DNA from: Candidatus Buchananbacteria bacterium
GTDB lineage: Bacteria; Patescibacteriota; Patescibacteriia; 2-01-FULL-39-33
NCBI GenBank assembly: GCA_903888345.1
Contig: CAISTG010000007.1
Location: forward strand, 1,075-65,074
Reading direction: 5' to 3'
Length of the DNA: 64,000 nt
Position numbers and translations under genes: made by a program. Position 1 is the first letter of the stretch; the number at the start of each line of letters is the position of its first letter. Below the pieces are notes generated by a model. It was not told the origin of the DNA, did not search any database, and was given only the letters and a program-made list of their open reading frames with translations. This document shows positions 794-63,600 of the stretch, piece by piece.

Positions 794-1102
794 TTAAAAT
801 TTTTCTAAGCGCAGATTTTCTAAATCTGTCCCGCATAAATTGCAACTGTCCAAGCCAATATATACCTCTGTCTGGTCTACCGGAATTTCTAGTTTGGTTT
901 CTTCTAATATGTATTCCAGTCCCTCTTGATCAATGCCCTGCGTGAAGCCGCAGCCATGGCAAAATAAGGCCATTGTTGCTCCTTCTGCTAGAGTTGCTTT
1001 GATAGTATCAGGCTTAGGAAGGTGTCCTCCAGTAGCCGCCGGCCGGCGTACGCGGCCGAGCAGTTCGGCGGGAATTTTGTTATCTTGCTCGTTTGATTTC
1101 AT
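794..1102 (-). CDS. hypothetical small protein with zinc-ribbon-like CxxC...CxxC pairs
   Basis: 102-aa ORF with ATG start. Motifs CHGCG and CNLCG. Overlaps the upstream gene by 23 nt. No family recognised. Confidence 0.45.
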   Translation of the reverse strand: MKSNEQDNKIPAELLGRVRRPAATGGHLPKPDTIKATLAEGATMALFCHGCGFTQGIDQEGLEYILEETKLEIPVDQTEVYIGLDSCNLCGTDLENLRLEKF

Positions 1103-40438: not shown

Positions 40439-40864
40439 ATGCCAACTATTAATCAATTGTTGAAAAACCCTAGACGGGCTAAGCCAACCAAATCCAAGAC
40501 TCCAGATTTGCAGTCTACTTTGGACAGTTTGCACCGCAAAAAACGCACCATGAAAAAAGGTAATTCTTTTAAGCGTGGTGTTTGTACTGTTGTTAGAACC
40601 ACTACTCCAAAAAAGCCTAACTCTGCGTTACGTAAAATCGCTAGAGTTCGTTTAAGTAATGGCCAAGAAGTCACTGCTTATATCCCAGGTATTGGTCATA
40701 ATTTACAAGAGCACTCGATCGTTATGGTCCGTGGTGGAAGAGTTAAAGATCTTCCTGGTGTTCGTTATCACATTGTCCGTGGTGTTTATGATGCCGCTGG
40801 CGTTGCTAATAGAAAGAAAAGTCGAAGCTTGTACGGTATGAAGAAAGCTAAGGCTGCCAAATAG
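40439..40864 (+). CDS. rpsL: 30S ribosomal protein S12 (with ~15-aa N-terminal insertion)
   Basis: [49 protein letters not shown]. Confidence 0.9.
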
Positions 40865-40966: not shown

Positions 40967-41434
40967 ATGCGAGGAAAACCAGCACCAAGAAGAACTATCA
41001 AACCGGACGAGAAATTCGGCCGTGAAGATATCGCCAAGTTCACTAATTATATTATGGAACGTGGCAAGAAAACCATTGCTAAGGGTATCATTTATGAGGC
41101 CTTAGATCTTATTTCTGAAAAAACCAAAGCTGATCCGATTGAAATTTTTGAAGCAGCTATTAAAAATGTTTCACCTTCAGTCGAAATCAAGGGCCGCCGT
41201 GTCGGTGGTGCCAACTATCAAGTGCCAATGGCTGTTCGTCCAGAACGTAGCTATGCTTTGGGTTGCCGTTGGTTAATTGATGCCGCCAAAGCCAAGAAGG
41301 GCAAAAAGATGGCGATTAAATTAGCCGATGAATTGATTGCCGCTTTCAATAATGAAGGTAATGCCATCAAGAAGAAGCAAGATACCTATAGAATGGCTGA
41401 AGCTAATAGAGCTTTCGCTCATTTCTCTAGATAA
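40967..41434 (+). CDS. rpsG: 30S ribosomal protein S7
   Basis: 155 aa. RRVGGANYQVPMAVRPERSYALGCRWLIDAA. C-terminus ANRAFAHF. Confidence 0.9.
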   Translation: MRGKPAPRRTIKPDEKFGREDIAKFTNYIMERGKKTIAKGIIYEALDLISEKTKADPIEIFEAAIKNVSPSVEIKGRRVGGANYQVPMAVRPERSYALGCRWLIDAAKAKKGKKMAIKLADELIAAFNNEGNAIKKKQDTYRMAEANRAFAHFSR

Positions 41435-41486
41435 GATATTTTTTTGAACCTTACATAATTAAAAATCAACCAAAAGGAGTCGTGTC

Positions 41487-41846
41487 ATGATTAGTCAGAT
41501 TGACTTGATGGTAATTCAGCGTCGTGGAGACGATGTTAAATGTACTTATGGCGGGCCCTCCAAAAAAAGAGGCAAGTTTGTTGCTTGGATAGAGTTGTTT
41601 AATGGTGATGATTTTCATCGTCACATTCTCAACACCAATGACATTTTTGATTCGGCAGAGGCGGCCAAGTCTTGGGCCGAAAAGTTCGTGGCGGCTGTCA
41701 GAAAGATGCCGGAAGGAGATTTATTCAAGGCTATTCCACAAGAAGATTTGCTGGTTCTTACTGCAGTTATTGATGAAGTTGTTGCTCTGGAAAAAACATT
41801 GGCACTCGCAGAAAAATCTGCACTCGCAGAGGGAGCTGAGTCATGA
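41487..41846 (+). CDS. hypothetical protein, unit A of duplicated cassette
   Basis: 119 aa. aaggag SD 7 nt upstream. Core FVAWIELFNGDDFHRHI...FDSAEAAKSWAEKFVAAVRKMP is paralogous to 42144..42383. Confidence 0.55.
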   Translation: MISQIDLMVIQRRGDDVKCTYGGPSKKRGKFVAWIELFNGDDFHRHILNTNDIFDSAEAAKSWAEKFVAAVRKMPEGDLFKAIPQEDLLVLTAVIDEVVALEKTLALAEKSALAEGAES

Positions 41847-42106
41847 GTACTGTTGAAGCACGTATCGAGAGATTGAAAAAAAGGTCTGAGATCATTAAGA
41901 AAGCACTGCGACAGGAAGACGCAAAATTAAGGCGCGCACTTAAACGGATTCAGAAGGATTGCCAGCATAAATGGGGCGATTGGCAAGCTGATGGCTTCAG
42001 GATTCTTAGAGAACCCGGTGAAACCTATACGGATTATAGGGTTTGTAATATCTGCGGTCACAAGCAAGAAAAAAGCGTGGTGCATCAGAGACGATCATAT
42101 TATTGA
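41843..42106 (+). CDS. hypothetical coiled-coil / zinc-ribbon protein, unit B of duplicated cassette
   Basis: 87 aa. ATGA overlap with unit A. CQHKWGDW...RVCNICGHK. Paralogous to 42433..42768. Confidence 0.55.
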   Translation: MSTVEARIERLKKRSEIIKKALRQEDAKLRRALKRIQKDCQHKWGDWQADGFRILREPGETYTDYRVCNICGHKQEKSVVHQRRSYY

Positions 42107-42143
42107 TTCTTCAGGTTTATCGACCTAAATGGAGGATACTGCG

Positions 42144-42383
42144 ATGAAGATTAGTGCTCTGGATGTTAGAGCGATTCAGTCTAATGAGGCTGGCATTGAA
42201 GTCAGAAGTTGTTTTCAATATAGTACTGTTGGTTTGTATATAGCAGTAATTGAATTGTGGCGTTCAGGTGCATTTGATCATGAAATAAAAAGAACCCGAC
42301 CATTGTTTGCTTCCGAAGAAGAGGCTCTTGCTTGGGCAAATGGTTTTGTGCAGGCCATTAGAGAGCTACCTATTGTCAGCTGA
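42144..42383 (+). CDS. hypothetical protein, unit A' (paralogue of 41487..41846)
   Basis: ATG 42144 with ggagga SD 8 nt upstream (the track starts at 42129). YIAVIELWRSGAFDHEI...FASEEEALAWANGFVQAIRELP. Confidence 0.5.
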   Translation: MKISALDVRAIQSNEAGIEVRSCFQYSTVGLYIAVIELWRSGAFDHEIKRTRPLFASEEEALAWANGFVQAIRELPIVS

Positions 42384-42432
42384 TTTCTCAAATTATGGTC
42401 ATTGCAATTAACTAGCCAAGAGGAAACAGAAA

Positions 42433-42768
42433 ATGCTAAAGAGTAGACGCGTTTTATCGCCAGCGGGAAAGATAGACCCGCGGAGAAAAAAACTTATTAA
42501 GTTGGCCGTGCAATTGGTAGCGGTCGAAACTCGGGCGAAAAAAGAAAAGCAAGCCATCGAGAAAAAGATTACTAAGTTACGAGATGAGTGTCCTCATGAT
42601 TGGGGAAAGTGGACTCGAGCAAAGCCCCGTAACTACTATGCCGGCAATATCGGTAATTTCTATGGTCAAAGTAAATGCTTTAATAGGTTCAGTTTTCGTA
42701 AGAGGGTCTGCAGTATTTGTGGTAAGATAGAGCATAAGAAAGGCAAGCTAATGTTTCTTTACAGTTGA
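42433..42768 (+). CDS. hypothetical coiled-coil / zinc-ribbon protein, unit B' (paralogue of 41843..42106)
   Basis: 111 aa. CPHDWGKW...RVCSICGKIEHK. Lys-rich helical N-terminus. Confidence 0.55.
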   Translation: MLKSRRVLSPAGKIDPRRKKLIKLAVQLVAVETRAKKEKQAIEKKITKLRDECPHDWGKWTRAKPRNYYAGNIGNFYGQSKCFNRFSFRKRVCSICGKIEHKKGKLMFLYS

Positions 42769-42895
42769 TTTTTTTGAGGCGACTGTTTACGCTTTCGCCT
42801 CTCCTAATTATTTTTTAAAAATTTATATATTTCGCAATGACGACTAAATTCGTTATTTTACATTATAACTTTAAAGACTTTTAACTAATTCATTT

Positions 42896-45028
42896 ATGCC
42901 CCGTAAAACTCCCTTAGAAAAAATTAGAAATATCGGTATTATCGCTCACATCGATGCTGGTAAGACCACCGTTTCCGAACGCGTTTTATTCTACACCGGT
43001 AAAAAACATAAGATTGGCGAAGTTCATGAAGGTGAAGCCACCATGGACTGGATGGAACAAGAAAAAGAGCGTGGTATTACTATTACCTCAGCTGCCACTA
43101 CTTGCTATTGGCCAAATCCTGAATGGTTAGGTGGCGGAGAAATCCAGATCAACTTAATCGATACCCCAGGCCACGTTGACTTTACTGCCGAAGTGGAGCG
43201 CTCTTTGCGCGTGCTTGATGGCGGTGTCATCGTGTTTGATGGTGTTGCTGGCGTGGAGCCACAATCCGAAACTGTTTGGCGTCAATCGGAAAAGTATCAT
43301 GTGCCAAAATTAGGCTTCGTCAACAAGATGGATCGTATGGGTGCTAACTTTTATAACGATTTGAAATCTATTCATGATCGTTTAACAGCTCATGCTCATC
43401 CAATCCAATTGCCAATCGGCGCTGCCGAAACTTTCACTGGTATTATCGACTTGTTCGAAATGAAAGCCGAAATCTACAAAGATGAAATGGGTACCAAGTT
43501 TGAAGAATCTGAGGTCCCAGCTGATGAATTAGAACGCGCCAAAGAATACCGCGCTAAATTAGTTGAAGCCATCGTTGAAACCGACGAAGTTTTGATGGAA
43601 AAATATTTAGCTGGTGGCGAAATTTCTATTCCTGAATTAAAGAAGGCTTTAAGACAAGCCGTTATTGGTAATAAATTAGTGCCAATTCTTTGCGGTTCTG
43701 CTTTGAAGAATAAAGGTGTTCAATTTTTATTAAACGCGATTGCTGATTACTTGCCAAATCCTTTGGATATTCCAGCACCACTGGGCCATGCCGTTGAAGA
43801 TGAAGAAAAAGCGATTCCAGTTTCCGTTGTAGACTCTGTACCAATGGCTGGTTTGGCTTTCAAGATTGCCACTGATCCGTTTGTTGGTAAATTAGTATTT
43901 TTCCGCGTTTACTGTGGCGTTTTGAAATCAGGATCATATATCGTTAACAATAAGAATGGCAATAAAGAACGTGTCGGTCGTATTTTAAGAATGCATGCTA
44001 ACTCGCGTGAGGAAGTTGAGGAAGTTTATGCTGGTGAAATCGCCGCTTTGGTTGGTATTAGAGATGTTACTACGGGTAACACTTTATCCGATCCTTCTTT
44101 CCCAATTTTGTTAGAATCAATTACTTTCCCAGAGCCAGTTATTGATATTGCGATTGAGCCTAAAACAAAAGCCGATCAAGAAAAGATGGCTTTGGCCTTA
44201 TCAAAATTAGCTGAAGAAGATCCAACTTTCCGTGTACATACCGATGAAGAAACTGGTCAAACGATTATTTCTGGTATGGGTGAGCTTCATTTGGATATTA
44301 TCGTTGATCGTATGCGCCGTGAATTTAAGGTGGAAGCTAATGTGGGTGAACCGCAAGTCGCTTATCGTGAAACTATCAAGAGCAAAGCGGAAGCTGAAGG
44401 TAAATACATTCGTCAATCCGGCGGTCGTGGTCAATATGGCCATTGCTGGTTGCGTGTTGAGCCATCAGAACCTAATAAAACTTTTGAATTCGCCGACGAA
44501 ACCAAGGGCGGTTCTATTCCTAAGGAATATATTAAGCCGATTGAAAAAGGCGCTCGTGAAGCAATGGATCGTGGTATTTTGGCTGGTTACACTTTAATTG
44601 ATATTAAGGTAACTGTCTTTGATGGTTCCTATCATGAAGTTGACTCTTCTGAAGCGGCTTTCAAAATTGCTGCTTCGATGGCTTTCCAAGAGGCGACTAG
44701 AAAAGCGACTCCGATTATTTTGGAACCAATCATGAAAGTTGAGGTGGTGACTCCAGAACAATTTATGGGTGATATCATTGGTGACTTAAACTCTCGCCGT
44801 GCAATCATCAACTCCATGGAAGATCGTGGATCGGGAGCGGCAGCCGTTAAAGTCATTAGCGCTCAAGTGCCATTAGCTGAAATGTTTGGCTATACCACTG
44901 CGATGCGTTCCATGACTCAAGGCCGTGCTTCCTCCTCAATGGAATTCTTCCGTTATAGTGAAGTACCAAAGAACGTTGAACAAAAGATTATTGAAGGTCG
45001 TTCTGGTAAAACCACTGAAAGAAAATAA
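42896..45028 (+). CDS. fusA: elongation factor G
   Basis: 710 aa. G1 [21 protein letters not shown]. Domain IV/V motifs. Confidence 0.95.
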
Positions 45029-45045
45029 AGTCTCATTATATAAAA

Positions 45046-45080
45046 ACACGCTCGGATTAATTTCCGAGCGTGTTTTTTTA
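45046..45080 (+). terminator. intrinsic terminator after fusA
   Basis: acacgctcgga-ttaatt-tccgagcgtgt followed by a T7 run. Confidence 0.6.
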
Positions 45081-45085
45081 TGTCC

Positions 45086-45524
45086 TCTGTCATTCCGGGC
45101 CTGACCCGGAATCTGAGCCCTTGTTTCTGACTCGCACATAGATTCCGGCTCAAGGCCGGAATGACACAAAGGGAGGCCGGAATGACAAAAAAAGGGGGGT
45201 GAGTGGGTAGAGTAGAGTAGGTCCAGCATGCAAGTCATCGTGGGCACCAGTTCAAGTCATTCCGGGCCTGACCCGGAATCTGGGCCCTTGTTTCTGACTC
45301 GCACATAGATTCCGGCTCAAGGCCGGAATGACACAAAGGGAGGCCGGAATGACAAAAAAAAGGGGGGGTGAGTGGGTAGAGTAGAGTAGGTCCAGCATGC
45401 AAGTCATCGTGGGCACCAGTTCAAGTCATTCCGGGCCTGACCCGGAATCTGGGCCATTACTTATGACTCGTAACGAGATTCCGGCTCAAGGCCGGAATGA
45501 TACAAGGGGAGGCCGGAATGACAG
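45086..45524. repeat. tandem array (2.6 units of 167-169 bp), each unit carrying one MITE-like palindromic element plus a ~68-bp G-rich flank
   Basis: gtcattccgggcctgacccggaat...attccggctcaaggccggaatgaca...ggccggaatgaca starts at 45089, 45256 and 45425. Units are near-identical including the flanks. Confidence 0.8.
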
Positions 45525-45609
45525 AGGAGAATTAAGTTATCAACAGTTTTTATATTTTAACTTTAAGCCCATTTTGTGTTATAATAATAGCAATGGATGA
45601 CAAAATTTA

Positions 45610-48600
45610 ATGATCGAATTTAAGAAAAAAGTGCTTAAACATTTACAATCAGAACGATTGCGAGTGTTGGCACTTCAAGCCAAAAAATTTGCTCAAGCCA
45701 AGAAGGCTCACGCCGTTTTTCTAATTAAATTAACGGTGATTTTAGTCGCTTTTTTTAGTGCTGCCGGGATTTTGATTCCCCAGTATAAAATTGATGAGTC
45801 TTTGGTTATTAAAAATCCGGCAATCAAACAAACGACGGCCATTGTGGCGGGTGGGAAGCCGATTAAATATAGTGTTTTGGTAAGACGAACAGAAATTTCC
45901 GATGGTAGTTATTTACTTAAACTGCCTAAGACTGCTAATAACATTGAAGTGGCGACGGCGACTACTAAGCAAATCAAAACCTTATTGTCTGCACCAGAGC
46001 AAATTACTCCCTTAAAGCAACGTGAATTGCTAGCTAAACAGCACCCCAATCTCCAGTCCGGCCTGATTATTAATACCTATCAAGCTTTGGCTGTTCCTTT
46101 GAAATCAATGGTGACCGATCTGTCTTGTCGTTTAACATTGCGACCAAGAGACGCCGTGGTTGTTAATTTAGCGCAGGAGATTAATTTGACGTCAGTCAGA
46201 CAGACGCGATTAAGTAATCATTTGAGTCCGAGTTTATTGGCGATTTTTGTGAGTCCAGAGCTTAGTTGGTCTCGCTATCTAAATGAGCTTATTGGTAATT
46301 TCATTAAAGTGGCCGCGGCTCAGACAGTGGAAGAAATTCCGACTGCCGCTAGCGAATCACCAACTATTGGCTCAGATCCGTTACAAAATTTAATTGACTC
46401 TTTGACGGCTGAACCAAGTGATGTTGTTCCGCCGATTAAGGTTCCTGAGGTTGTGGCTCCCATTGTTGCTTCAGTTTCTAGCACTTTGCCAGAAGTCAAG
46501 GTAGAGCCGATTGATATTGATGTCGCAACCAATGGTTTGCCAGTAGTGCCAACGGTCGTCACCTCTAGTCATTCCGGGCTTGAACCGGAATCTGAGCCCA
46601 CCTCATCAACAACTCAAATGGAGATTCCGGATCAGGTCCGGAATGACAATAGCGGCCTTCCAGAATCTGCCCCCGCTTCCTCCACCGAATTCGTCAAAAT
46701 TGACTTCGAAACCCCGGCTCCAATTATCACCGAACAAAACACTGACTCTGGCAAGTTGGTAACGATTTCTGACCCCAATGAAAATCCAGAAACACCGATG
46801 GTTGACGTTCTCGCCTCTACCAAAATTCCGCCGATTTACAAAGTCGGGCAAGAAGCCAAAATTCACATCAAATGGAAAAACAACGGCGACCAAAACATGA
46901 GTTTCCAGGCTTATGATAGCGACGCCGATGGTTACCTTGATTACGTCGAATGGACTGTCCCGCATCTATCCGAGCAAGTTTTTGAAATTATCTTCATCTC
47001 CAAGGCTTTTCAACTCGATAATGATAAAAATATTATTGCCGATATTTATTCTCAAACTTCCGCCAAAGACGGTAATTACGCTTCCGTCGCTGACGGGCAA
47101 TACGTCCGTGCAACCTTTGATTATGAATTAAATAGTGCAAATGACATTACTATTTATGCCAAAGCGTCGACTACTAATAATCATGGATCAATAGCGGTCT
47201 ATCCAGTCTACACTGACGCCGATGGCAATCAAACCGAAGGCCCGAAACTCGAGACAGTTTATGATGGCAATAACCCTGATTTCAAAAATATTGATCGCGA
47301 TGGCAAATATCGAATCTTGCTAACAAACCTAGATAAGCCAACGGACGTTTTTGATCTCAAAATTTCTGGCGATGTCGATATTGACTTCATCGTTGATCCA
47401 GTCAGCTGGCTCACGGGTTGGAATTATCGCAAATCTCTCACAGTCAATCACTTATATGTTGGCGGTGGCAATGGCAGTGCGGGGGGATCAGAAGACGAAA
47501 CGAATTTTCCAGTCGAAATTTCACTCACTGGATTATCTAATGTTAATGCTAGCGGAACAGATATTAGATTTACAGCCTCAGACGGCGTGACTCCACTTGC
47601 TAGAGAAATCGAATCATATTCTACCACCACTGGTACTCTTGTTGCTTGGGTTAAAGTGCCGACAGTTTCCTATACCGTCGATACCATGATTTATGTTTAT
47701 TATGGCAACTCTTCAGCCACAGAACCGGCTGCCAATTCCACTTATGGCGCGCAGAATGTTTGGACTAATGGCTTTGCTGGAGTTTGGCATTTGGCTGGAG
47801 CAACAAATTCGAGTGATTTAGATTCTACTAGTAATAATAGTACTGGTACGCCATTAGGTGCGACCAAGCCAACTCAGACAACAGGGCAGATTAATGGCGC
47901 CCTAAGTTTTAATGGCAGTACGAGTTATGTTGATATTGCTGAGCCAGGCTCAAGTTTAAATTTTTCTTCTACAAATAATTTCTCATATTCGGCTTGGGTT
48001 AAAACAACTCAGAGCAGTACTCGCTCGGAAATCGTTGGTGATTTTAATAACAACCCGGCGACTAATATGGAGGTGGCGACCGTTGCCAATAGCTCAAATA
48101 TTGATGGAGCCTTTCGAGTTTACTTGGCTGATGGTACTTCAAATATCAAGGATTATCGCACGAATATTTCTATCGCTGACGGAGCTTGGCATAAAGTCGG
48201 CTTCTCATATGCTTCTACTAGCCAAGTGCTGACACTATTTGTTGATGGTGTGGCTCAATCAAACCCGCAAAAAGTATATGATGCCGCGCTTTCTGGCAAT
48301 CTTTATAATGCTTCTACAATAAAAATTGGCGAAGACAATCGACCCGTTACTTTTTTCTTCAATGGCTTAATTGACGAGCTTGGTATTTCCTCAGTCGCTC
48401 GTTCAGCCGGTTGGATAAAAACAGAATACAATAATCAAAACGCCCCGAGCAGTTTTTATGCCACGGGCGCGGAAGAAGCACTGGTCACTCCGGCTAGCAA
48501 CTTCACTTGGACTAATGGCTCCGGTGATGGTAAATGGAGCACTGCCGGAAACTGGCAAGGTGGGGTAGTGCCGGGACCGAGTGACACGGCAACATTTAGC

Positions 48601-51600
48601 GGTTCTGCGACTGGCAATTGTTCGATTGATGTTGATGCTAGCGTCACTGGACTCAACATCGCTTCGGGCTATACTGGCATAGTAACAATGAATGCAAATT
48701 TGGCCATCTCCGGAAATCTGACAGTCTCCGCCGGAACTTTGGCAGTTGGAATTTATAATCTAGCGGTAACTGGAAATTCGACAGTTACTAATGGCACGAC
48801 GACGATTGGTGTTTCTTCATCAACCGGTTGGACAACAACTAATTTAACAATCGGAGCGGGAGGCACAGCATCATCAACAGCGCCGGGCACAATTTATTAT
48901 AATCAGGTGACGGTGAGTGGGACCTTGTCGCCAGATGTTACTGGTACTTATACGGTTGCGGGCATGTCAAACGGAATGCCATATTATTCAAAATTGATTA
49001 ACGGCACTACCTGGTATTTACAGTATTCTCCAAAGAATAATGCGTTAGTATTTTATCTTGCTTCAGCTCTTGATCCTGACAATATGGGGGCGACTAGTCC
49101 AAATCGATGGTTTATGTCTTTTAGCGGTACTCCATATTCTAATTCTTTTGCTGGAGCTTATAGCGCTGGATCAGGTGGAGCAACTGGCATTCCGACCGTC
49201 GCCAACGTCACCGCCTCAGGTGAATACACCAGATTAAACAATTCCAAAATCACCATCTCCGGCAACTTTGATCAGTCCAGTATCTCCTCTAAATTTCTCT
49301 CCGCTTCCTCGCTGATTACTGTCAATGGCAATGGTAGTTTTACTGCGGATGGGACAGTAAATGGTACACAATATAACTCAGTAAGTTTGGTTTTGAATGG
49401 GGTGAATAATCTAAGGTATAACAATAATGCCATTGTTAATAATGGATTCAATAATTTAATTGCCGGACAAGGCGGAAGTACTACGACAATAGCAACAGAT
49501 ATTGGAATTAGTAATACCCTGACTATCGGTTCTGGTAGCATCGCCGGTTCTGCCTATAATTTCTGGCTAACAGGGGCAAATCCACTAAGTTTTGATACAT
49601 CATCAAGATTGGCAGTAGGTTCAATATTGTTCAGAGGAACCACTCAAATAATACCAACTCTTATTAATGGTTATGATTCGACCATACAGGTCAGTCAAGG
49701 TGGGACTACCGTCACCCAAACTGGTAATATCGTAATTAATGGTGTTAATAATATTTATCTAGATAATATTGCAAGACCAGCTGGAATAATAACCTGGAAT
49801 ACGGCTGGTTATAATTTATCTGTTGGTGGGAATATTAAAATTGGCGCTGGCTCTGACTCCGCTCTTAAAAAACTTGACGCCAATGGCTCGGGCGGACGTA
49901 ATTCCATCATTACAGTCGGGGGCAATTGGCTCAATTATGGCACGGCAACTGGGTGCTCGGGAACATGCGTGCCGTCGCAATTTATAGCCGCAAGCTCAAC
50001 GGTTGTCTTTAACGCTACTTCTACTACTCGCACTATAACTAACGGCTCAACTACTTCACCTTTCTATAACCTCACCATTAATGGCACAAGCAGTACTTTC
50101 ACTTTGACTGATAATGCGCGCGTGTCTGGTGACCTTACTGTCACCAATAGTACCTTGGCCATCGGCACAAATGATTTGCTCGTCACTGGCAACTCAATCA
50201 TTACCAACGGCACCACTTCCATCGGCGCCTCAGCAAATACTGGCTGGACGACGAATAATTTAACTTTGGGCGCGAATGGTATAGCTTCGTCCACAGCCGG
50301 AGGAACGGTTTATTATAATCAGGTGACAGTGAGTGGAACGCTGAGTCCAAATGCCGCGGGAGTTTATACGGTAGCGGGGATGTACAATGGAGCGCCATAC
50401 TATACAAACGGAACTTATTATATTTGGTGGCGAACAACGGGGAATTGGCGACTTTCTGACGGTCTCGGAGTAATTTCTGGTGTTTGTTGGTATTTGTATA
50501 CCTCATCTAATATAAATATTATTACTGGGTCTTTTGCCGTATATAATGCAAATGAAACCGGCGAGGCAACTGTCTCCAACGTCACGGCCTCGGGCGAGTA
50601 CACCAGATTAGATAATTCAAAAATTACTGTCAACGGAATTTTTGACCAGTCCAATACAAATTCTAAATTCCTCGCTGCCTCGTCACTTATTACCATCAAT
50701 GGTAATGGAAGTTTTACAGCCGACGGAACACTTAATTCGCTACAATATAATGGCGCTAGCGTTACTTTAAATGGCTCCAGCACGCTGAGCTATAATAATT
50801 TGGCGAATAATTTTGGTAATGGCTTTAATAATTTAACAACTGGGCAGAGTGGTGGGACGACGACTCTTTCTTCCGTTGGTTTGACGGTCAAAAATCAATT
50901 ATCAGTAGGGTCAGGCACTTTCAATGGGCCGGGTTATGTATTTTTGGCAGGCTCCGCGCCCTTAAATTTTAATGTTTCCTCTCACTTGGCAATTTCCTCA
51001 CTATATTTTTTGACGACCTATGTCACCACCACGATTCCGACTTTGACCAATGGTTATGATTGCGACATTATTGCTATCGGCAATCCTAATGTAATTATTC
51101 AAACTGGCGATGTCACTCTTAACAATAGTAAGTTCCTCGGCATCAATGGCAATAATAATGATTTCCCGACAACTTGGAAGACGGACGGATATAATTTAAC
51201 AGTTGGCGGAAATATCCAAATCGGTACTTTTAATAATAATGTAAATCTACAAAAACTCGACGCCACTCATAATGGGGCGCGCACTTCAACTATCACTGTC
51301 GGCGGTAATTGGCTCAACTATGGCACAGCGACGATTAATGGTAGGTTTGTGGCCGACAACTCCACGGTGATTTTGACTAGCACCAGTTCGAGTGCCAAAA
51401 TCACGTCTGGTTCTTCGACCTCTCCGTTTTATAATCTAACTATCAACGGCGCAGGCGGAACTTATACTTTGCAAGATGCATTAGCTGTTGCACATAATCT
51501 AACACTGACAAACGGCACGCTTGATACAAAATTAAACAGTAACTATCCCGTGACGATTGGCAGTGCTGATCCGATTAATGGTGATTTCTCGCAAACTACC

Positions 51601-54600
51601 ACCGCCAAATTCTTAGCGCGCAGTTCCGTCATAACTTTAAACGGCAATGGTAATTTTACGGCGGATGGTACGATTGATGGCACGCAGTTTAATGGCGTAA
51701 GCTTAACACTTAATGGAATTAATACGCTTACTTATAATAACTTGGCAGCTCCGTTTGCCTATGGATTTAATAATTTAACCGTCGGACAAGGCGGAAGCAC
51801 TACTACCTTAGCGAGTCATTTGGCTGCAATTAATACATTAACTATTGGCTCAGGCACATTATCTGGGACTACTAGAACTCTCTTTGTGTTGGGAGCAAAT
51901 CCTTTAAATTTTGATGTAAGTTCGAGACTTGCAGTAGGTCAGCTTGAGTTTATAGGTGCAAATCAAACTATTCCCGCCCTGGTGAATGGCTATGATTCAA
52001 GTATCTATTTGGTGCATACAAGCGGAACCGTTACTCAAACCGGAAATGTTATTATTAATTCGCCAAATACCTTAACTATTGGATTAACATCCGCTCAGCC
52101 GGAACGTAAAGATACTTGGAATACATCTGGATACAACTTAACAGTCGGAGGCAATCTTCAAATCGGCGTTGGGAATGACTCCGGTCTCAAAACTCTCGAC
52201 GCCACTGGTGCTGGTGGACGTACTTCAACTATTACCATCAGTGGTAACTGGCTTAATTATGGAAATGGCACGGCGTCATCAACTTTTATTTCGGCAAATT
52301 CAACTGTGATTTTTAATTCAACGACAACTGGCAAAACGATTACCTCTGGTGCGATCAACTCGGCTTTTTATAATGTGAATTTTGCTGGCGTTGGCGGGGC
52401 TTACACCTTGCAAGATAATTTTAGTGTGCTGGGTGATTTGAATGTTGTCGCTGGCGTATTAAACGCTGGAACTTATAACCTGGCGGTCACGGGTAATTCC
52501 ACTGTGTCTAACGCTACCACGACTATCGGCATTTCGGCGGGTACTGGTTGGACGACGAATAATTTGACAATTGGGGCGAACGGCACGGCTTCGTCTACAG
52601 CTAATGGCACTATTTATTACAATCAAGTGATAGTGAGCGGAACTTTGAATCCAGATGCGACGGGGACTTATACTGTCGCGGGGATGTATGGAGGGAAACC
52701 GTATTATAGAAGGGGCTCTGATTCTTGGTATTTATCATGGAGATTTAATTCAGTTTGGGACATAACACCGCAATCTCCTGAGCAAGGTGCTGTTACAGCA
52801 TGGAGAAGGACCGGAGACCCTTTAGTTGGTAATTATTACCCAGTTGGAAGTATACCCCCAACCGGCACTGCCACCGTTGCCAACGTCACTGCCTCAGGCG
52901 AATATGCTAGATTAGATAATTCCAAAATCACCATCGCTGGCAACTTCGACCAGTCCAATATCTCCTCAAAATTCCTCGCCGCTTCGTCGCTGATTACCGT
53001 CAATGGCAATGGCAATTTCTCTGCGGACGGAACTTTGGATTCGACACAATATAATAATTCGATCTTGGTTTTAAATGGTACGAATACGTTGGCATATGTT
53101 AGTTTGGCTAATACTAATGCTAATGGATTTAACAAATTAGTTGTAGGTCAAAACGGTAACACAACGGAAGCGCCTGGTTTACAAGTAGCGATTCAAAATC
53201 TGACTGTGGGATCGGGGACACTGCATGGATCTTCCGCGTATTTTAATTTACTCGGGCCTAATCCATTAACTTTCGACACTGATAATTCATCTTTTAATAT
53301 TTATGGGTTGCAGTTTTTTGGTACCAACCAGACGATTCCGGCCTTAACGAAGGGGTATAATTGTCATGTGTTTATTCCCAATAGTAGTTCCATTGTGACA
53401 CAAACAGGGAACGTTAACATCTTGAGTCCGCGGTCTTTATTTCTTGGTGGTTATGCTGGTATTACTGGCACAGGACCGTCAAGATCGCAGTCATGGAAAA
53501 CTGACGGTTATAATTTGACTGTTGGTGGCAGTATTCAAATTGGTAATGGCTCTGACACGGGGCTTAAGACGCTTAATGCTTTTAGTGGCGCGACTAGTAC
53601 TCGCAATTCCACCATCACCGTTGGTGGAAACTGGCTCAATTATGGTAATGGTTCAGCTCCGTCGCAATTTATTGCTGGTAGCTCTACGGTCGTGATGGCG
53701 GGCACGAGTGCTTCTGGCACAATTATCTCTGGCACCACAACTTCGCCATTTTATAACTTGACTATAAACGGGGTAGGCGGGACCTACACGTCGCAAGATA
53801 AAACATCAGTTAGTGGAACTTTGACGGTGACGGCGGGGACTCTAGCTATTGGCACTAATGACTTAGCGGTCACTGGAGCTTCAACTATCAACGGTGCTTT
53901 AACTCTTGGTAATTCATCGAGTACTGGTTGGACAACAGGGGACTTGAATCTCGGCGCCAGCGGAACAATTACTTCAAACGCCACGACTTATTACAACCAA
54001 GTGACGGTTAGTGGGACGCTGAGCCCTGATGCGAGTGGGACCTATACTGTCTCGGGAACTGCAAATGGTTATCCAAGGTATGTAAAAGGTGCTATGTCAA
54101 TAATTAACACTGGCACTGGTCTCTGGAGAATATATACAGACGCGACTAATTTTTATTATTATAAGATTAGCGCAGAAATGGCTGGAGCATACACCAACTT
54201 TAATGGTTCTACTGGTGTTGCTACTGTCGCCAATGTCACGGCTAGCGGGATTTATTATGGAGTGACTTCTGACGTGACGATCTCGGGCAATTACACCCAA
54301 ACCGCTGGCGGATATTTCAACGCCGGACCGTCTTTGATTACCCAAAATGGTAATGGCAATTTCACAGCGGATGGGAATAATGACAACACAAAGTCGGCAC
54401 AATTTAATAATGCAAGTTTGGTTTTGAATGGGAATAATACGCTGACTTATAATAATAATTCAAACTATGGTTACTATGGATTTAATAATTTAACCGTTGG
54501 GCAAGGAGGAAGCACCACCACAATAGCGTCACATTTTACTGTAAAAAACATATTAACGATAGGATCGGGAACTTTAACAGGCAATTATTGGGTATATTTG

Positions 54601-57600
54601 TTTGGGGCAAATCCTTTAAGTGTTGATACTGCTAACTCAGCTATTTCAATTGGCTTTTTAGCTTATAATGGGACAAGCCAGACTATACCTGCTTTAACCA
54701 AAGGTTATGGTTGCAGTATAGAAGTGGATAGTGGTAATGATGTTATTACTCAGACGGGGGCTGTTGTATTGAATGGTACAGGGTTGCTTAATGTGACTTC
54801 TAATCCGGCTGGGATAGCCACATGGAAAACTGATGGTTATAACTTGACCGTTGGTGGACGGATCCAAATCGGTGTCGGTTCTGACACTGGTCTCAAAAAA
54901 CTCGATGCCACCGGTTCTGGCGGACGTAATTCTACCATCACTGTCGGAGGTAACTGGCTCAATTATGGCAATAGCGCTGACCCGGCTAATTCTTCTCGAT
55001 TCATTGCGGCGAGCTCAACTGTTATCTTTAATAAAATCTCAGGCACACAAACTTTAAATGCTGGTGCTAATTATTCTTCATCTACTTTCTATAACCTAAC
55101 GCACTCTGGCGCTGGCATTTTACGGATTATCACTAACCCAATTACAATTACCAACAATTTCACCAATTCCGCAGGAACTTTTGATGCAAATGGCCAGGTG
55201 GTAAACGTGGGAGGGAATTGGAATAATACGGCAACTTATTTGCATGGCACTAGCACGGTCAACTTGATCGGTTCTGTGGCTCAAGCGATTATGGGCACCA
55301 CCACTTTCTATAACTTAGTCAAAACCGTCACAACTGCTGCGACGCTCACTTTTGAAGCCGCCAAAACTCAGGTGATCGCTGGTACTCTGACCTTACAAGG
55401 CGCGGCTAATCAATTACTAACTCTTGTTTCTTCTGTCCCGGGTACTGCTTGGTTCATTAATCCTTTGGGATCGGTTGTGATGAGTTTCTTAAATATTTCT
55501 GATGCCATAAATAGTTCGGCTAGTCCTATTGTCGCGACTTTTTCTAAAAACTTAAGCAACAACCCTAATATCACTTTCTCGGCGACGACCGTCACTTGGA
55601 CGGGAGCCTCAAGCACTGACTGGAACACGGCGGGTAACTGGGACACGGGCTATGTGCCAAACACTACCGACAACGTTGTGATTTCAAGTGCTTCCAATCA
55701 ACCCATACTTTCCACCTCGACTACTGTTAATAATTTGACAGTTAATTCTGGTGCGATTCTCGCTATTGGTACTAATAACATGACGGTGACCGGAAATTCC
55801 ATCATCAACGGCACCACGACTATCGGCATTTCCGCTGGGACGGGTTGGACGACGAATAATCTGACTATTGGAGCAGGCGGCGTGGCTTCGTCTACGGCTA
55901 ATGGCACGATTTATTATAATCAAGTGACGGTGAGTGGAACTTTATCGCCGGATGTTGCTGATACATATACCGTAGTAGGGATAAAAAATGGATATCCCGA
56001 TTATGCATCAAATTCACAGCATAATGGATATACTTATCATATTTGGCGATATACAAACGGAAACTACTATATCACGCCAGATTATTTAGTATTCTCTTCA
56101 GACCCGGGTCATTGGGTTAACACAAATGGTACAGCGGCTGGAACATATCCCGCCAATAGTCCATCAGTTACAGGGTCTGCAATCGTCGCCAACGTCAACG
56201 CCTCAGGCGAATATACCAGAATGGATAATTCCAAAATCACCATCGCTGGCAACTTCGACCAGTCCAACATTACTTCAAAATTTCTCGCTGCTTCGTCGCT
56301 GATTACCGTTAATGGCAATGGTACCTTCATTGCCGATGGGACGGTGAATAGCACGCAATATAATAGTGCTAGCTTAGTTTTGAATGGAAACAATACTCTG
56401 ACGTATGGCAATTTAACAGCTAACTGGGCAAATGGATTTAATAGTTTAACTACTGGACAAGGAGGGGCTACTACAACTTTGGCAAGTACTGCTACGATTA
56501 GGAGTTTATTGACGGTTGGGTCGGGAGCATTGACGGGTAACGCTTCGCTATCATTACTGAGTCCCAATCCTTTAAGCTTTAATGTTGCTTCGATCTTATC
56601 AATTAATTTATTATATTTTAATGGTGGCTCAAATCAAACTATACCTACCTTAGTTAACGGGTATAGCTGTAATATTTATGATTATCATAATGGACAATCA
56701 ATGCAACAAACTGGTGATGTTGTTTTAAATGCTGGAAAGTCTTTGTATGTTGGAAATACTGCGACAGGTTGGATTGATACTTGGAAAACTGATGGTTACA
56801 ATTTAACTGTCGGCGGTAATTTAACAATTGGATATGGCGCTGACACCGGACTCAAAAAACTTGATGCTACAAATTATAGCTCACCCGGTAATCGCACTTC
56901 AACAATTACAATTGGAGGTAATTGGTTCAATTATGGAACAGCAACGGGATGTGCAGGCTCATGTACACCATCCTCCTTTATCGCTGCCAGCTCAACAGTT
57001 ATCTTCAATGCCACCTCAACCACAAGAACTATTACTTCTGGCTCATCAACTTCGGCTTTTTATAACCTAACAATTAATGGCACGAGCAGTACTTTCTCTC
57101 TTGTTGATAATTTGAGTGTTGCCGGAAATTTGAATGTCACTGCTGGCACCTTAGCTATTGGGGTTAATAATTTGGCAGTCACGGGTTCTTCCACTATTAA
57201 TAGCACCTTAACACTTGGTAATTCATCGAGCACCGGTTGGACAACAGGTGATTTGAATCTTGGCGCAAGTGGAACAATCACCTCCAACGCCACAACTTAT
57301 TACAACCAAGTGACGGTGAGTGGAACGCTGAGCCCGGATACGGCGGGCACTTATACGGTTGATGATGTAGGCTATCCAGCTGGATATAATGGGCAACCAG
57401 TATACAAACGAAATGGCTTAGTTGGTGGAGTACAATTTTGGAATTGGCTATCTTATAATGGGTACAGGTATACAACTGGACTTTTGCCTGGAGTCGCAAC
57501 GGGTAATGTGTGGCAAAAAAATCCTGGATCTATGATCGGTACGTATACAGCGGCGGGCACATATACGGGCACCGCCACCGTAGCTAACGTTACGGCTAGC

Positions 57601-60600
57601 GGGATTTATTATGGTGCTACTTCTGACGTGACTATCTCGGGCAATTACACTCAGGCTGCTGGCGGATATTTCAACGCCGGGCCGTCACTTATCACAGTCA
57701 ATGGTAATGGAAATTTCACGGCTGATGGCACGGGAACTAAGCAGACTCAATTCAATAATGCGAGTTTAGTTTTGAATGGGGTGAATACGTTAGCATATAA
57801 TAATTTGGCAGCGTTTAGCACTAATGGATTTAACAATTTAACCGTTGGGCAAGGCGGTAGTACTACAACTTTATCTAACCATATCAGCGTTAGGTCTGGC
57901 TTAACAATTGGTTCCGGCACATTGAGTGGAAGTAGTTATGTTATATATATGGCGCAATTCTTGGGCGCTCTCAGTTTTGATGCTAATTCCCATCTTAGTA
58001 TTTCAAGTTTGAACTTTAGAGGTAATATCTCATTACCCACCCTCGTTAATGGCTATTGTTCTATTAATGTGGAGGAAAATGGTACGATAATAACCCAAAC
58101 GGGTAGCATTATTATCAGTTCTAACTTGATTATGGGTCAAACTGCAGGGTATGTCAGTACGTGGAATACCGACGGTTACAACTTATCAGTAGGCGGTAAT
58201 CTCCAAATAGGTAATGGTTCTGATTCCGGTCTCAAAACTCTTAACGCTAATGGCTCGGGAGGACGTACATCCACCATTACCGTTGGTGGTAACTGGCTCA
58301 ACTATGGCAATGGTACAGCACCATCGCAATTTATGGCAGCAAGTTCGACAGTTATCTTCAACAAAACTTCTGGCACGCAGACATTAAACGCTGGCGCTAA
58401 TTATGCTTCATCAACTTTTTACAACTTAACTCATTCTGGATCCAGCACTTTACAGTTGTTAGTTAATCCTTTGACGATTACCAATAACTTCACCAACTCC
58501 GCCGGTACTTTTGATGCTAACGGTTTCAATATCAATGTCGGTGGTGGTTGGAATAATACTGCGACCTATTTACACGGCACTAGCACCGTAACACTTTTTG
58601 GCTTGTCTCAAGCGATTATGGGCACCACGACTTTCTATAACCTAGTCAAAACCGTCACAACTGCAGCGACGCTGACCTTTGAAGCCGCCAAGACTCAAGT
58701 AATTGCTGGTGCTCTAACCTTGCAAGGCGTTGCCAATCAATTATTAACTTTAGTTTCCTCTATACCTGGCACCTCGTGGTTCATTAATCCACTGGGTTCG
58801 GTTGTTTTGAGTTATTTAAATATCTCTGACGCCATTAATAGCTCAGCCAGTCCGATTATCGCGACCTTTTCAAAAAACTTAAGTAACAATTCCAATATCA
58901 CTTTCTCCGCTACGACCGTCACTTGGACGGGAGCCTCAAGCACTGACTGGAATAATGCCAGCAACTGGGACGTTGGATATGTGCCTAATATGACTGACAA
59001 TGTGGTAATTGCTAGCACGACTAATCAACCTGTGCTCTCCACTTCGACCTCTGTTAATAATATTACAGTCAATTCTGGTGCGATTCTCGCTATTGGTACT
59101 AATAACATGATAGTGACCGGAAATTCCATCATCAATGGCACCACCACCATCGGCATTTCCGCGGGCACTGGTTGGACAACGACTAATTTGACGATTGGAG
59201 CAGGTGGTACGGCTTCGTCTACGGCCAATGGCACGATTTATTATAATCAAGTTACGGTGAGCGGGACTTTGTCACCGGATGCAAGCGGTACGTATACGGT
59301 GGCGGGGATGTATGCAGGAAAGCCATATTATAGACGAGGGACTGACAATTATTATATTTATTATAATATGACGGGGTCGGGATTTGATTATTATCGTATT
59401 GGAACCACGTTGGGTTCTACATACCCAGTTTGGAATTTTGTTGTTACTGAAAGTCTATTTAATCTTCCTAGCTCGTCATACTTTAATAATGGAACCACAG
59501 GCACCGCCACAGTCGCCAACGTCACCGCCTCGGGTGAATACACTAGATTAGATAATTCCAAAATCACCATCGCTGGCAACTTCGACCAGTCAGCGACATC
59601 ATCCAAATTCCTCGCCGCTTCATCTTTGATCACTCAAAATGGCAACGGCACATTCACGGCTGATGGCACATTGAATTCGACACAATATAACGGGGCGAGC
59701 TTGGTTTTAAATGGTGTAAACACTCTGGCTTATAATCATATATATGCCGGAACATCAAATGGATTCAATAACCTAACTGTAGGCCAAAACACTAATACTA
59801 CGACATTTGTTTCTGACTCCAACTTCGCCATCTTAAATACTCTTACTGTTGGCACGGGCACATTCTACAGTGTTACTAATTCTCATTTTTATCTATATGG
59901 AGCTATTCCATTAAGCGTTGATGCAGCATCCCATATTTCTATTGCTGCACCAAATAAGCTTTACTTTTATGCCTCAAATGTAACAATTCCGGCCCTTACA
60001 AATAATGGTTATGATTGCAGTATTGCTATTAGGGGGACAAATACTACAATTACACAAACAGGAAATGTAGTTATTAATGGTTCTAATACATTAACTATTG
60101 GTTTAGCGGTGGCTGGCTCCATTGATACCTGGCTAACCAACGGTTACAACTTAACTGTCGGAGGAAATCTTCAAATAGGATGGGGTTCCGACACTGGTCG
60201 CAAAACCCTTGATGCTACTGGTTCAGGCGGACGCAATTCCACTATCACCGTCGGAGGTAACTGGCTCAACTATGGCAATAGCGCTGACCCTGCTAATTCT
60301 TCACGATTTATTTCCGCAAGTTCAACTGTTATTTTAACTAGTACCAGTTCAGGAGCGACAATCACTTCAGGTTCTTCAACGTCCGCTTTTTATAATCTCA
60401 CTATCAACGGCACGGGCGGGACTTACACTTTGCAAGACAATGCTAGTGTTGCTGGAGCTTTGAATGTGACAGCTGGCACCTTGGCTATTGGCGTTAACAA
60501 TTTAGCGGTCACGGGTATTTCAACTATCAACAGCGCCTTAACGCTCGGCAACTCATCTAGCACTGGCTGGACAACAGGGGACTTGAATCTTGGCGCCACC

Positions 60601-63600
60601 GGCATAATCACCTCCAACGCCACGACTTATTACAATCAAGTGACGGTGAGTGGGACTTTGAGTCCTGATGTGACGGGGATATATACTGTGGCGGGGGTTT
60701 ATGGTGGGAAGCCTTATTATAGGCGGGGAACCGATAATTATTATATTTATTATAATTCAGGATCAAATTATTGGGATATATCAATTAGTGTTAATGATGG
60801 AACTCGTCGATGGACACAAGTTTCTGGTATTTTTGCCGCAAATTATGAACCTATAAATAGTGCCTCAGGCACCGCCACCGTCGCGAACGTCACAGCAAGC
60901 GGACTTTATTATGGTGCGACTTCTGACGTGACGATCTCGGGCAATTACACTCAAACCGCTGGCGGATATTTCAACGCCGGTCCGTCTTTGATTACGCAAA
61001 ATGGCAACGGAAATTTCATCGCTGATGGCAACAACGACGCCACCAAATCAGCTCAATTTAATAATGCGAGTTTAGTTTTGAATGGAATGAACACGCTGAC
61101 TTATGGACATAATTTTTCTGTAGTTGGTGATGGATTTAATAATCTTACTACAGGACAAAACGCGAATACGACAACTCTCGCCAGTTCATTCACGGTTAAA
61201 AACACTCTAACCGTTGGGACGGGGACAGTTACTGGTTCGTCAATATTAAATTTACTCGGAGCAACACCCCTTAATGTCGTAGCTAGCAGCTCTATCATAT
61301 CCGTAACGACTCTAAACTTTTATACTGGTGTTACTCTGACTCAGACGATACCGAATATCACTAATGGTTATAACTGTAATATCCAAGCGACGGGCTATGG
61401 ACAAACAATAAATCAATTAGGTGATATTAAAATTAACGGATCAAATTATTTTTATATCGGAACCTTTGTTGATGCTGGTAATTCTGTAGCATGGTTAACT
61501 AATGGGTATAATTTGACGGTGGGCGGCAATGTAAGGATTGGCCTAAATAATGACTCTGCTCTCAAAAAACTTGACGCTACCAATTATACCAACCCCACTT
61601 CGACTGCTAGCTCTACCATTGTCGTCGGTGGCAACTGGACTAATTATGGAACTGGTTCCGCCCCATCACAGTTCACTGCCGCCAGCTCCACGGTCATTTT
61701 CAACAAAACCTCTGGCACACAAACCTTAGCCGCTGGCGGTAATTACGCTTCGTCCACTTTCTTCAATCTGACTCATTCCGGTTCTAGTACTCTGCAATTA
61801 ATCACTAACCCTTTAACGGTCACTAATAACTTTGTTAATTCTGCCGGAACTTTTGATGCCAATGGGTTTAACATTTACGTTGGTGGCAATTGGAATAATA
61901 CTGCGACCTACTTGCACGGCACCAGCACTGTCACTCTTTTTGGCTTGTCTCAAGCGATCATGGGCACCACGACTTTCTATAATTTAGTCAAAACCGTTAC
62001 CACCGCTGCGACCCTAACTTTTGAGGCCACCAAAACTCAGGTGATTGCTGGTGCTCTGACTTTGCAAGGCGTTGCCAATCAATTATTAACTTTAGTTTCT
62101 TCAATTCCTGGCACCTCGTGGTTCATTAATCCATTGGGTTCAGCCGTGCTTAATTTCTTAAACATTACTGATGCGGTTAACAGCTCTGTTGGTGCAATTA
62201 TTGCCACTAACTCCAAAAACTCAAGCAACAATTCTAACATAACGTTCCCAGCCGCGACCGTCACTTGGACTGGTGCTTTGAGCACTGACTGGAACACGGC
62301 AGGCAACTGGGATGTTGGTTATGTGCCTAACGCTACTGACAACGTCGTGATCGCTAGCACCACTAATCAACCAGTTCTTACTACTACAACTTCAGCGAAC
62401 ACTCTTACTATTAATGCTGGAGCAACTTTAATAGTCGGAACAACCAGTTTGGCAATAGCTGGAACTTCAACCATTAACGGCACACTGACGATTGGTACTT
62501 CAGCTGGTGCGGGTTGGACAACTGGGGATTTGATCCTTGGTGCCAGCAGTACTATTACTTCGAATGCTACGACTTATTATAACCAGGTGACGGTGAGTGG
62601 GACTTTGAGTCCGGATGTGACGGGGACTTATGTCGTGGCAGGAGTATATAATGGGAAACCATATTGGAAGCATAATTCTTTGAATTGGTGGGTATGGGCC
62701 AATCCGCTAGGAGATTATAGAATTACCGATGGTCTCGGACAACAGAATACTTATCGATGGAATGCCGCTGGTGGCCCAATAACAAATTATAATCCTGTAA
62801 ACCCAACAACCGGCACCGCCACCGTCGCCAACGTCACAGCTAGCGGAATTTATTATGGTGTGACCTCAAAGGTAACGCTCTCAGGAAATTACACTCAAAC
62901 CGCTGGCGGATATTTCAACGCTGGTCCATCACTTATTACCGTCAACGGCAATGGTAATTTCACGGCCGATGGCTCGGGTAACTCTGGAGCTTATTCTACT
63001 CAATTTAATAACGCGAGTTTGGTTTTAAATGGAGTAAATACGCTGACATATAATAATATATCTAGTTACTGGGGAAATGGGTATCATAATTTGACTGTTG
63101 GACAAGGAGGTAGCACCACCACAATTGCTAGTAGTTTTAATATTCGAAATATTTTAACCATTGGATCTGGTAGCTTAACTGGTAATAAAACTTTGTTCTT
63201 AACGGGCTTAAACCCACTTAGTTTTGACGTCAATTCTAGATTATCTATAACAACCTTAGAGTTTTTTGCAGTTGGACAAACAATCCCAACTCTTGTAAAT
63301 GGTTATGATTGTAACATGGAGATTTCTACAACAAATGCCTCTGTTACTCAGACCGGAAATGTAACTTTTAATAATGCTCATTACTGGGACATTGGAGCAG
63401 GTGATAATGGTAATGCTGGACATACTATTACTTGGAATACTAATGGCTATGATCTAACAGTAGGCGGTACTCTTTCAATCGGCGCGGGCTCTGACACGGG
63501 GGTCAAAAAACTTGACGCCACTGGCTCAGGCGGACGCAACTCTACCATCACTGTCGGCGGTAACTGGCTCAATTATGGCAATGGCACTGCTTCTTCAACT

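Follow-up and report, generated by a model that had tools for sequence, protein, structure and literature searches.

A candidate accessory mini-operon between rpsG and fusA in a Candidatus Buchananbacteria-like genome of the Candidate Phyla Radiation

Small genes lodged among conserved neighbours, or marked by a distinctive translation signal, are known from several systems, including phage 'morons' and other accessory cassettes, type II toxin-antitoxin pairs such as HicAB, and the rpsU gene (encoding bS21) of the Bacteroidia. HicA has an alpha-beta-beta-beta-alpha topology resembling that of a double-stranded RNA-binding domain (dsRBD). In Bacteroidia that are blind to the Shine-Dalgarno (SD) sequence, the lone strongly SD-led gene is rpsU, which is autoregulated through the availability of the anti-SD (PMC9976891, PMC7797042, PMC13000453). 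In Flavobacterium johnsoniae, rpsU is the only strongly SD-led gene and is translated by ribosomes lacking bS21 (PMC9976891, PMC13000453, PMC7797042). The anti-SD motif is detectable in just 48% of Parcubacteria (PMC9297842). The present analysis concerns a 64,000-nucleotide stretch of contig CAISTG010000007.1 (assembly GCA_903888345.1, positions 1,075 to 65,074), referred to as the window. Between the genes for ribosomal protein S7 (rpsG) and elongation factor G (fusA), the window carries a cassette of four small genes, arranged A-B-A'-B'.

The host is an uncultured groundwater bacterium, a Candidatus Buchananbacteria-like member of the Candidate Phyla Radiation (CPR). The best match to its rpsG among species-representative genomes is Candidatus Buchananbacteria JBAYGU010000002 (86%), with other Patescibacteria next. 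We give about an even chance to the reading that the cassette is a lineage-specific accessory mini-operon, found in one clade of such CPR bacteria, where it fills a conserved slot in the 3'-terminal position of the rpsL-rpsG unit. The features of the locus are collected in Table 1.

Table 1. Features of the cassette locus and one further SD-led reading frame, in window coordinates
Feature	Coordinates	Strand	Remarks
rpsL (ribosomal protein S12)	40439-40864	+	Open reading frame (ORF); no SD; 87-95% identity to rpsL in related loci; PF00164 on orthologues
rpsG (ribosomal protein S7)	40967-41434	+	ORF; no SD
Cassette leader	41435-41486	+	TTTGAACCTTA...AAAAATCAACC...AAGGAG; SD AAGGAG at 41474-41479
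A	41487-41846	+	119 aa; acidic, pI 5.0; positional orthologue directly 3' of rpsG in relatives
B	41843-42106	+	87 aa; basic, pI 9.9; start overlaps A stop (ATGA); SD GAGGGAG within A
A'	42144-42383 (alternative start 42129)	+	79 aa (84 aa); diverged A paralogue
B'	42433-42768	+	111 aa; pI 10.4, net charge +22; basic helical N-terminus, CPHDWGKW...RVCSICGK
Trailer hairpin	42776-42801	+	GAGGCGA-loop-TCGCCTC, then TCCTAATTA; T-run 42811-42816
fusA (EF-G)	42896-45028	+	No SD; 127 nt AT-rich spacer 5'; 83-89% identity to fusA in related loci
59-aa CxxC...CxxC ORF	794-973	-	Zinc-ribbon-like pattern; SD-led; no PADLOC or NCBIfam match

The cassette had first been described from the letters of the sequence, and much of that original prediction is borne out. 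ORF calls recover the four small ORFs in the order given, and A and B overlap by ATGA, as predicted. The claim that A and A' form one family and B and B' another, each with the quoted motifs, also holds: pairwise comparison gives 32% identity over 74 aa for A and A' (E=1e-11) and E=3e-5 for B and B', which have a basic helical N-terminus and the motif C-x-H-x-WG-x-W...RVC-x-ICG in common. By these comparisons, the paralogy of both pairs is above chance. The SD sequences reported for all four genes are present as GGAG or GAGG, 6-7 nt before the start codons. Translation of A' probably starts at 42144, which is also the start in the public gene model P0003 and is preceded by GGAGGA at a distance of 7 nt.

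The slot is best understood by comparison with close relatives, defined as loci whose fusA is 83-89% identical to that of the window. In two of these (L094 and L098) the order is rpsG-A-fusA, and in L097 A follows rpsG and precedes a glycosyltransferase gene. Four A-family paralogues and no B separate rpsG from fusA in L091, and a single B without A does so in L005. Neither A nor B is present at the slot in L006 and L007, where the gaps of 230 and 145 nt contain no ORF. The cargo thus turns over among relatives, from A to B, A-A-A-A, A-B-A'-B' or nothing. The copies of A adjacent to rpsG (window, L091, L094, L097 and L098) form an orthologous series with 41-63% identity; for the additional copies (A' and L091 copies 2-4), identity to anything is just 18-38%.

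The slot itself is bounded by a conserved leader with a strong SD and by a conserved hairpin. The leader aligns upstream of the first cargo gene in L091 (two copies), L094, L097, L098 and L005, and its consensus across all occupied loci, even the B-only L005, is TTTGAACCTTAA..AAAAATCAACC..AAGGAG. Downstream of the final cargo gene, the trailer consensus consists of the hairpin GAGGCGAC..TCGCCTC and then TCCAATTATTTTT or TTCCAAAAAGTTTT. The hairpin occurs once per cassette unit in L005, L091 (two copies) and L094 and in variant form in L098, and its stem is backed by two compensatory pairs among relatives. It is absent elsewhere in the window and in 99 other loci, and is not a dispersed repeat. 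A further motif found upstream of fusA in relatives, ATTCGTAATT, shows no enrichment in the window. L091 has two tandem copies of the complete unit (leader, two genes, hairpin). A conserved leader and hairpin around changing cargo argue that the slot is old and vertically inherited, with cargo that is gained, lost, duplicated and quickly diverged. The GC content of the cassette (0.41-0.44) shows no compositional anomaly against the window (0.42), which fits long residence.

Two of these relatives display features of their own. The four diverged tandem paralogues of L091 (5001-6514) are arranged as two leader-gene-gene-hairpin units, the second paralogue carrying a Cys-rich insertion, CEGVCPGGICDDKRKESC. 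The empty spacer of L007 (6469-6610) is made of short repeats of the CCACGAATC type and folds as a long hairpin (-47.7 kcal/mol).

Throughout the Buchananbacteria clade, a hairpin invariably stands between fusA and the preceding rpsG or cassette. This places the cassette at the tail of the rpsL-rpsG unit and not inside one indivisible transcript, so no single transcript is split. The position had also been called striking, an assessment that is lowered by a survey of 73 fetched loci (among L005-L084) carrying both rpsG and fusA, in which a gap above 400 nt was taken to hold cargo. Such gaps are present in 16 of the 73 loci, all 16 in CPR-type genomes, with cargo unrelated to A and B; in the six non-CPR loci the gap is at most 81 nt. 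Among the cargo are a ParE toxin preceded by a small ORF (L063), a protein with a weak YafQ-like toxin match (L025), a PD-(D/E)XK_3 protein (L036), a tRNA-binding domain protein (L016), pilin-like proteins (L017, L019 and L050), another zinc ribbon (L018) and membrane proteins. Accessory genes recurrently insert into the rpsG-fusA gap of CPR genomes.

Repeats are also found around this region. Directly after fusA, window positions 45020-45523 hold three tandem copies of a 168-nt element that are 70-93% identical to one another, each with a 27-nt inverted repeat (TGTCATTCCGGGCCTGACCCGGAATCT / AGATTCCGGCTCAAGGCCGGAATGACA). It looks like a REP or MITE element; comparable motifs lie in the rpsG-fusA gaps of L016, L017 and L075.

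The A protein belongs to a family that is detected by profile rather than by single sequence. An exhaustive HMM search with a profile of A and A', using a cut-off of E<=1e-3, returns 68 cluster representatives (12 at E<=1e-10), nearly all 75-120 aa long. Three large repetitive proteins in this search, P0010, P0016 and P0051, are repeat artefacts and were discarded. The family core reads IQxxGDD(V/I)KC...GK(W/Y/F)xGWIxL...H...T...(S/T)xEEA...V..(I/V)R. The family profile is defined by the alignment A5; A and A' score 1.3e-36 and 7.7e-24 with the A5 HMM, and both fall within the family. Of 37 members analysed, namely A, A' and 35 homologues, 24 are acidic. A' is without the GDD, Cys19, Gly23 and Lys30 positions of the family and without the C-terminal helix, and column conservation indicates that it has lost most of the conserved polar positions.

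The AlphaFold2 (AF2) model of A, built on the 37-sequence alignment, has a pLDDT of 94. Its secondary structure assigned by DSSP (H4-12, E17-22, E31-39, E42-49, H57-73) describes an alpha-beta-beta-beta-alpha core spanning residues 4-73. A and A' had been predicted to form a small alpha/beta domain ending in an amphipathic helix. The alpha/beta character is retained; the helix belongs to the core in the model, and A has an additional long C-terminal helix (85-117). A founds an undescribed family of about 75-aa, mostly acidic proteins with a predicted alpha-beta-beta-beta-alpha fold, and members are seen in several CPR genomes and two phage-like contigs.

Comparisons with characterised families yield little. 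Pfam, NCBIfam and PADLOC return nothing significant for A, A', the L091 relatives or the family alignment, and PHROGs return nothing on the A domain; the sole strong PHROG match, phrog_18256 (5e-18), falls on the zinc-ribbon extension of P0012, outside that domain. Foldseek searches of the A model find no match at E<=0.001 in PDB or BFVD, the best PDB match being the dsRBD 1qu6 (E=0.16, TM 0.30, rmsd 7.8) and the BFVD matches being uncharacterised phage proteins only (E>=0.05). A PDB profile search with A gives nothing beyond a TBP match at E=0.024. Since the fold matches are non-significant, the fold assigns no function.

B is a basic protein with a long helix and a C-H-C-C zinc ribbon. The helix spans residues 3-39 and is followed by the ligand pattern C40-x-H42...C68-x-x-C71, which the AF2 model (pLDDT 73, moderate confidence) renders as a three-stranded ribbon. 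The Cys/His ligands are kept across B, B' and a relative encoded in L005. Pfam, PHROGs and NCBIfam return nothing significant for any of these three proteins. PADLOC gives no matches for B, B', A' or three L091 paralogues, and coiled-coil-level noise only for the L005 relative of B. A PDB profile search with B yields coiled-coil noise only, and Foldseek of the B model finds no PDB match at E<=0.001. Scanning IMG/VR with the B alignment produces one weak zinc-ribbon match (L095); L096, from the same scan, is an unrelated multi-zinc-ribbon surface protein. Assignment of B as a DksA/TraR or zinc anti-sigma protein was dropped, as there is no supporting Pfam match and the ligand spacing differs.

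A set of small ORFs without known relatives invites the explanation that they are spurious or decaying junk DNA, and the original prediction had named recently acquired junk as an alternative. In this direction point the single-sequence searches of A and B against a 5.8-billion-protein collection, which return self matches only, and the only two population single-nucleotide polymorphisms (SNPs) observed, both in L002, both non-synonymous and both within A'. This explanation is largely refuted and scarcely credible, given the 68 representatives found by profile search, the confidence of the A model, the ligands conserved among the B proteins, and SD sites and ORF integrity that are kept in several genomes. 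The site is also filled in relatives, and the cassette is found with 99.8-100% identity in short contigs of four other metagenome assemblies (L001-L004). The four genes are real and almost certainly encode expressed proteins. The L001-L004 contigs contain the cassette only (window 41501-42708) and end short of rpsG or fusA; their breaks would fit co-occurring strains with common flanks and different cargo.

The relationship between A and B bears on most of the remaining explanations. One of these, which we consider unlikely, is that A and B are functionally unrelated passengers in a permissive slot and that A-B-A'-B' reflects one duplication of its contents. Either family is found without the other: A lacks B in L094, L098, L086 and L100, B lacks A in L005, and L091 has four A and no B. 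Most A homologues have no small partner gene at all, with essentially no relatives of B near them, and the slot takes many unrelated genes across CPR genomes. Opposed to this are the ATGA overlap, the SD of B inside A, and the retention of both families through duplication. The proteins are also of complementary charge, A being acidic and B and B' strongly basic. The A domain of P0012 and P0043 continues into a fused C-terminal zinc ribbon, and A homologues in L090 and L102 are followed, at a distance of one or two genes, by other zinc-ribbon proteins. Pairing of A and B is not obligatory. The original prediction had treated them as a two-gene module and had named single, unpaired homologues as the outcome that would count against it; homologues are mostly single, and the claim is largely abandoned.

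The same distribution bears on a toxin-antitoxin-like or anti-phage defence role, in which a duplicated pair would consist of acidic A as the neutralising partner and the basic zinc-ribbon protein B as its target. Small, translationally coupled genes of which the first is acidic and the second basic are suggestive of such a system, as are the close spacing of A' and B' and duplication with rapid divergence. Elsewhere in the CPR this gap does receive true toxin-antitoxin toxins (ParE in L063 and, as a weak match, YafQ in L025). A alone in most contexts, B alone and four A without B are hard to fit to a toxin-antitoxin system; in L005 the lone B lies behind the same leader, where a lone toxin would be lethal. 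None of the members matches a toxin, antitoxin or defence model in PADLOC, Pfam or NCBIfam, including all 37 A-family members against PADLOC-DB v2, and A is without a recognisable DNA-binding antitoxin domain. With partners that are not co-inherited, the proposal of a toxin-antitoxin or defence module is highly improbable.

The faint likeness of A to HicB/UPF0150 antitoxins that had been put forward also loses its footing. Even at E<=10, hmmscan matches 0 of the 37 A-family members to the HicB, HicB_lk_antitox, HicA or dsrm Pfam models, B and B' do not match HicA_toxin, the predicted topology is alpha-beta-beta-beta-alpha and PDB offers no significant match. HicB was rejected as an identity for A, with no sequence match and no adjacent HicA gene.

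Translation-initiation signals set the cassette apart from its surroundings. With GGAG or GAGG at -15 to -5 as the SD criterion, all four cassette genes carry an SD (AAGGAG, GAGGGAG, GGAGGA and AGAGGAA) versus 0 of the 27 other genes called in the window (32-45028), whose leaders are AT-rich; rpsL has one AGGA about 15 nt upstream. When the whole window is scanned for ORFs of 40 aa or more whose start codon is preceded by a strong SD, a single further intergenic case is added, the last entry of Table 1. The same contrast is seen in L091, L094, L098 and L005 and for the A homologues in L086, L087 and L100. With small lineage-specific ORFs carrying strong AAGGAG(G) sites and housekeeping genes none, the pattern points to two kinds of translation-initiation signal in these CPR genomes. 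Rfam searches of the window and of the locus give no matches, and the window holds no 16S rRNA by the same search.

By analogy with rpsU, this contrast can be extended into a translation-linked role, in which A, with or without B, would bind the ribosome, an elongation factor or RNA, be co-expressed with S12 and S7, and be translated from SD sites gated by anti-SD availability. An A orthologue directly after rpsG in 5/8 related genomes, other CPR homologues beside dus/cysS, cca and rplJ-rplL, and a strong SD confined to these genes in SD-poor genomes agree with this role, as does the rpsU precedent cited above. dsRBDs and HPF/protein Y head the list of fold matches, none of them significant. 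A basic charge together with a zinc ribbon, the combination found in B, is known from several small ribosomal proteins. Against it stand the absence of A from the slot in three close relatives (L005, L006 and L007), a copy number of 0 to 4, A orthologues that are 41-63% identical versus 86-89% for the flanking fusA, the mostly acidic character of A, its occurrence on phage-like contigs and beside integrases, and E>=0.16 for every such fold match. CPR genomes are dense in translation genes, so neighbours of this kind are expected by chance. About half of Parcubacteria are without the anti-SD motif (PMC9297842). Neither A nor B matches a ribosomal protein or translation factor in Pfam or NCBIfam. 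We regard a translation-linked role as rather improbable.

A more specific form of the analogy is a long shot. In it, initiation would be two-tiered, with SD-free housekeeping genes and strong-SD, tiny, lineage-specific genes (the A family, the B ribbons and a few small ORFs), and A would be a ribosome-state-dependent factor gated by anti-SD availability, parallel to the autoregulation of bS21 in Bacteroidia.

Beyond the slot, A homologues are found in diverse contexts. In L086 (Falkowbacteria), the homologue lies between an integrase and the CCA-adding enzyme, and in L087 it is part of an islet of small SD-led ORFs by a truncated integrase, upstream of rplJ-rplL. In L100 and L102 it is beside dus in a conserved cysS...dus...corA region. 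Two homologues (L090 and L103) are on ~97-kb phage-like contigs that carry a superinfection-exclusion PHROG, a sigma factor and a GIY-YIG endonuclease. These contexts make the link of A to mobile elements or phage suggestive but thin.

Taken as an accessory mini-operon, the cassette is most likely a non-essential, fast-evolving unit. On mechanism, where our confidence is much lower, the four genes would be read through from rpsL-rpsG or transcribed from the leader, and transcription would end at the hairpin. The acidic A would be the primary functional unit, acting on a protein or nucleic-acid target, and B an optional, putative partner that binds A, nucleic acid or both. Extra copies would have arisen through tandem duplication of the unit and would now be diverging quickly. 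The products may be non-essential modulators, most plausibly with a role in mobile-element or phage-host conflict or in regulation, and would be neither a toxin-antitoxin pair nor a core ribosomal component.

Several observations weigh against this interpretation. Neither A nor B matches anything characterised in all the sequence and structure searches made. The predicted terminator-like hairpin after B' is present as a hairpin, but a consensus terminator scan makes no call, and the T-run starts 9 nt past the stem. Partnership of A and B is called into question by A', which has no acidic C-terminal helix, and by A orthologues in genomes without B, which still keep theirs. The only clear relative of B is the 93-aa ORF of Buchananbacteria L005 (CPHEWGIW...RTCSYCGK), at the same genomic site, in a B-family search that was not exhaustive. 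For the mobile-element or phage link, IMG/VR scans with three A sub-alignments and P0036 find no A homologue, tblastn of GenBank phages with A, P0036, B and B' gives no match, the single IMG/VR match to B (L095) is weak, and the strong PHROG match is on a fused ribbon only. A homologues also recur beside translation and tRNA genes (rpsG/fusA, dus, cca and rplJ-rplL), which could point to a role in translation.

Two other features of the window are recorded here. Giant ORFs are present on the forward strand at 45601-63999 (>6133 aa, running off the window end) and at 10007-22258 (4083 aa). The S12 protein of the window is 141 aa long and, by eye, carries an insertion of ~17 residues after its N-terminal segment relative to E. 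coli S12, common to related loci.

The small-protein family defined from this locus is unannotated, has no known relative and has a confidently modelled fold, and the supposedly fixed S12-S7-EF-G order emerges as a recurrent landing site for accessory genes in CPR. If the SD split is general, it bears on translation initiation in CPR bacteria, which have reduced ribosomes and sometimes no anti-SD motif. The cassette also offers a well-defined target for expression, interaction and ribosome-binding work.

Among known systems, dsRBDs have the same element order as the predicted topology of A and differ in that A has no significant structural match, no Pfam dsrm match and a mostly acidic family. 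HicAB and other type II toxin-antitoxin systems likewise consist of two small coupled genes, one acidic and one basic, and the element order predicted for A is that of HicA; they differ in that the cassette shows no family matches, its partners are not co-inherited, B is a zinc ribbon and the fold matches are non-significant. The ParE/RelE and PD-(D/E)XK_3 cargo of other CPR genomes occupies the same insertion site as the cassette, but the proteins are unrelated and are known to Pfam, whereas A and B are not. As with rpsU of Flavobacteriia, a few strong-SD genes stand amid SD-free housekeeping genes and among ribosomal protein genes; A and B are distinct from bS21 and fail every test for a ribosomal protein. 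The parallel is one of analogy only. Phage 'morons' and accessory cassettes resemble the locus in being small genes with their own leader and a downstream hairpin between conserved syntenic genes, present, absent or swapped among close relatives, with flanking genes that do not need the cargo. In contrast to these, the cassette is chromosomal, lies 3' of a ribosomal protein gene, has host-like composition and a putative promoter and terminator, and is tandemly amplified.

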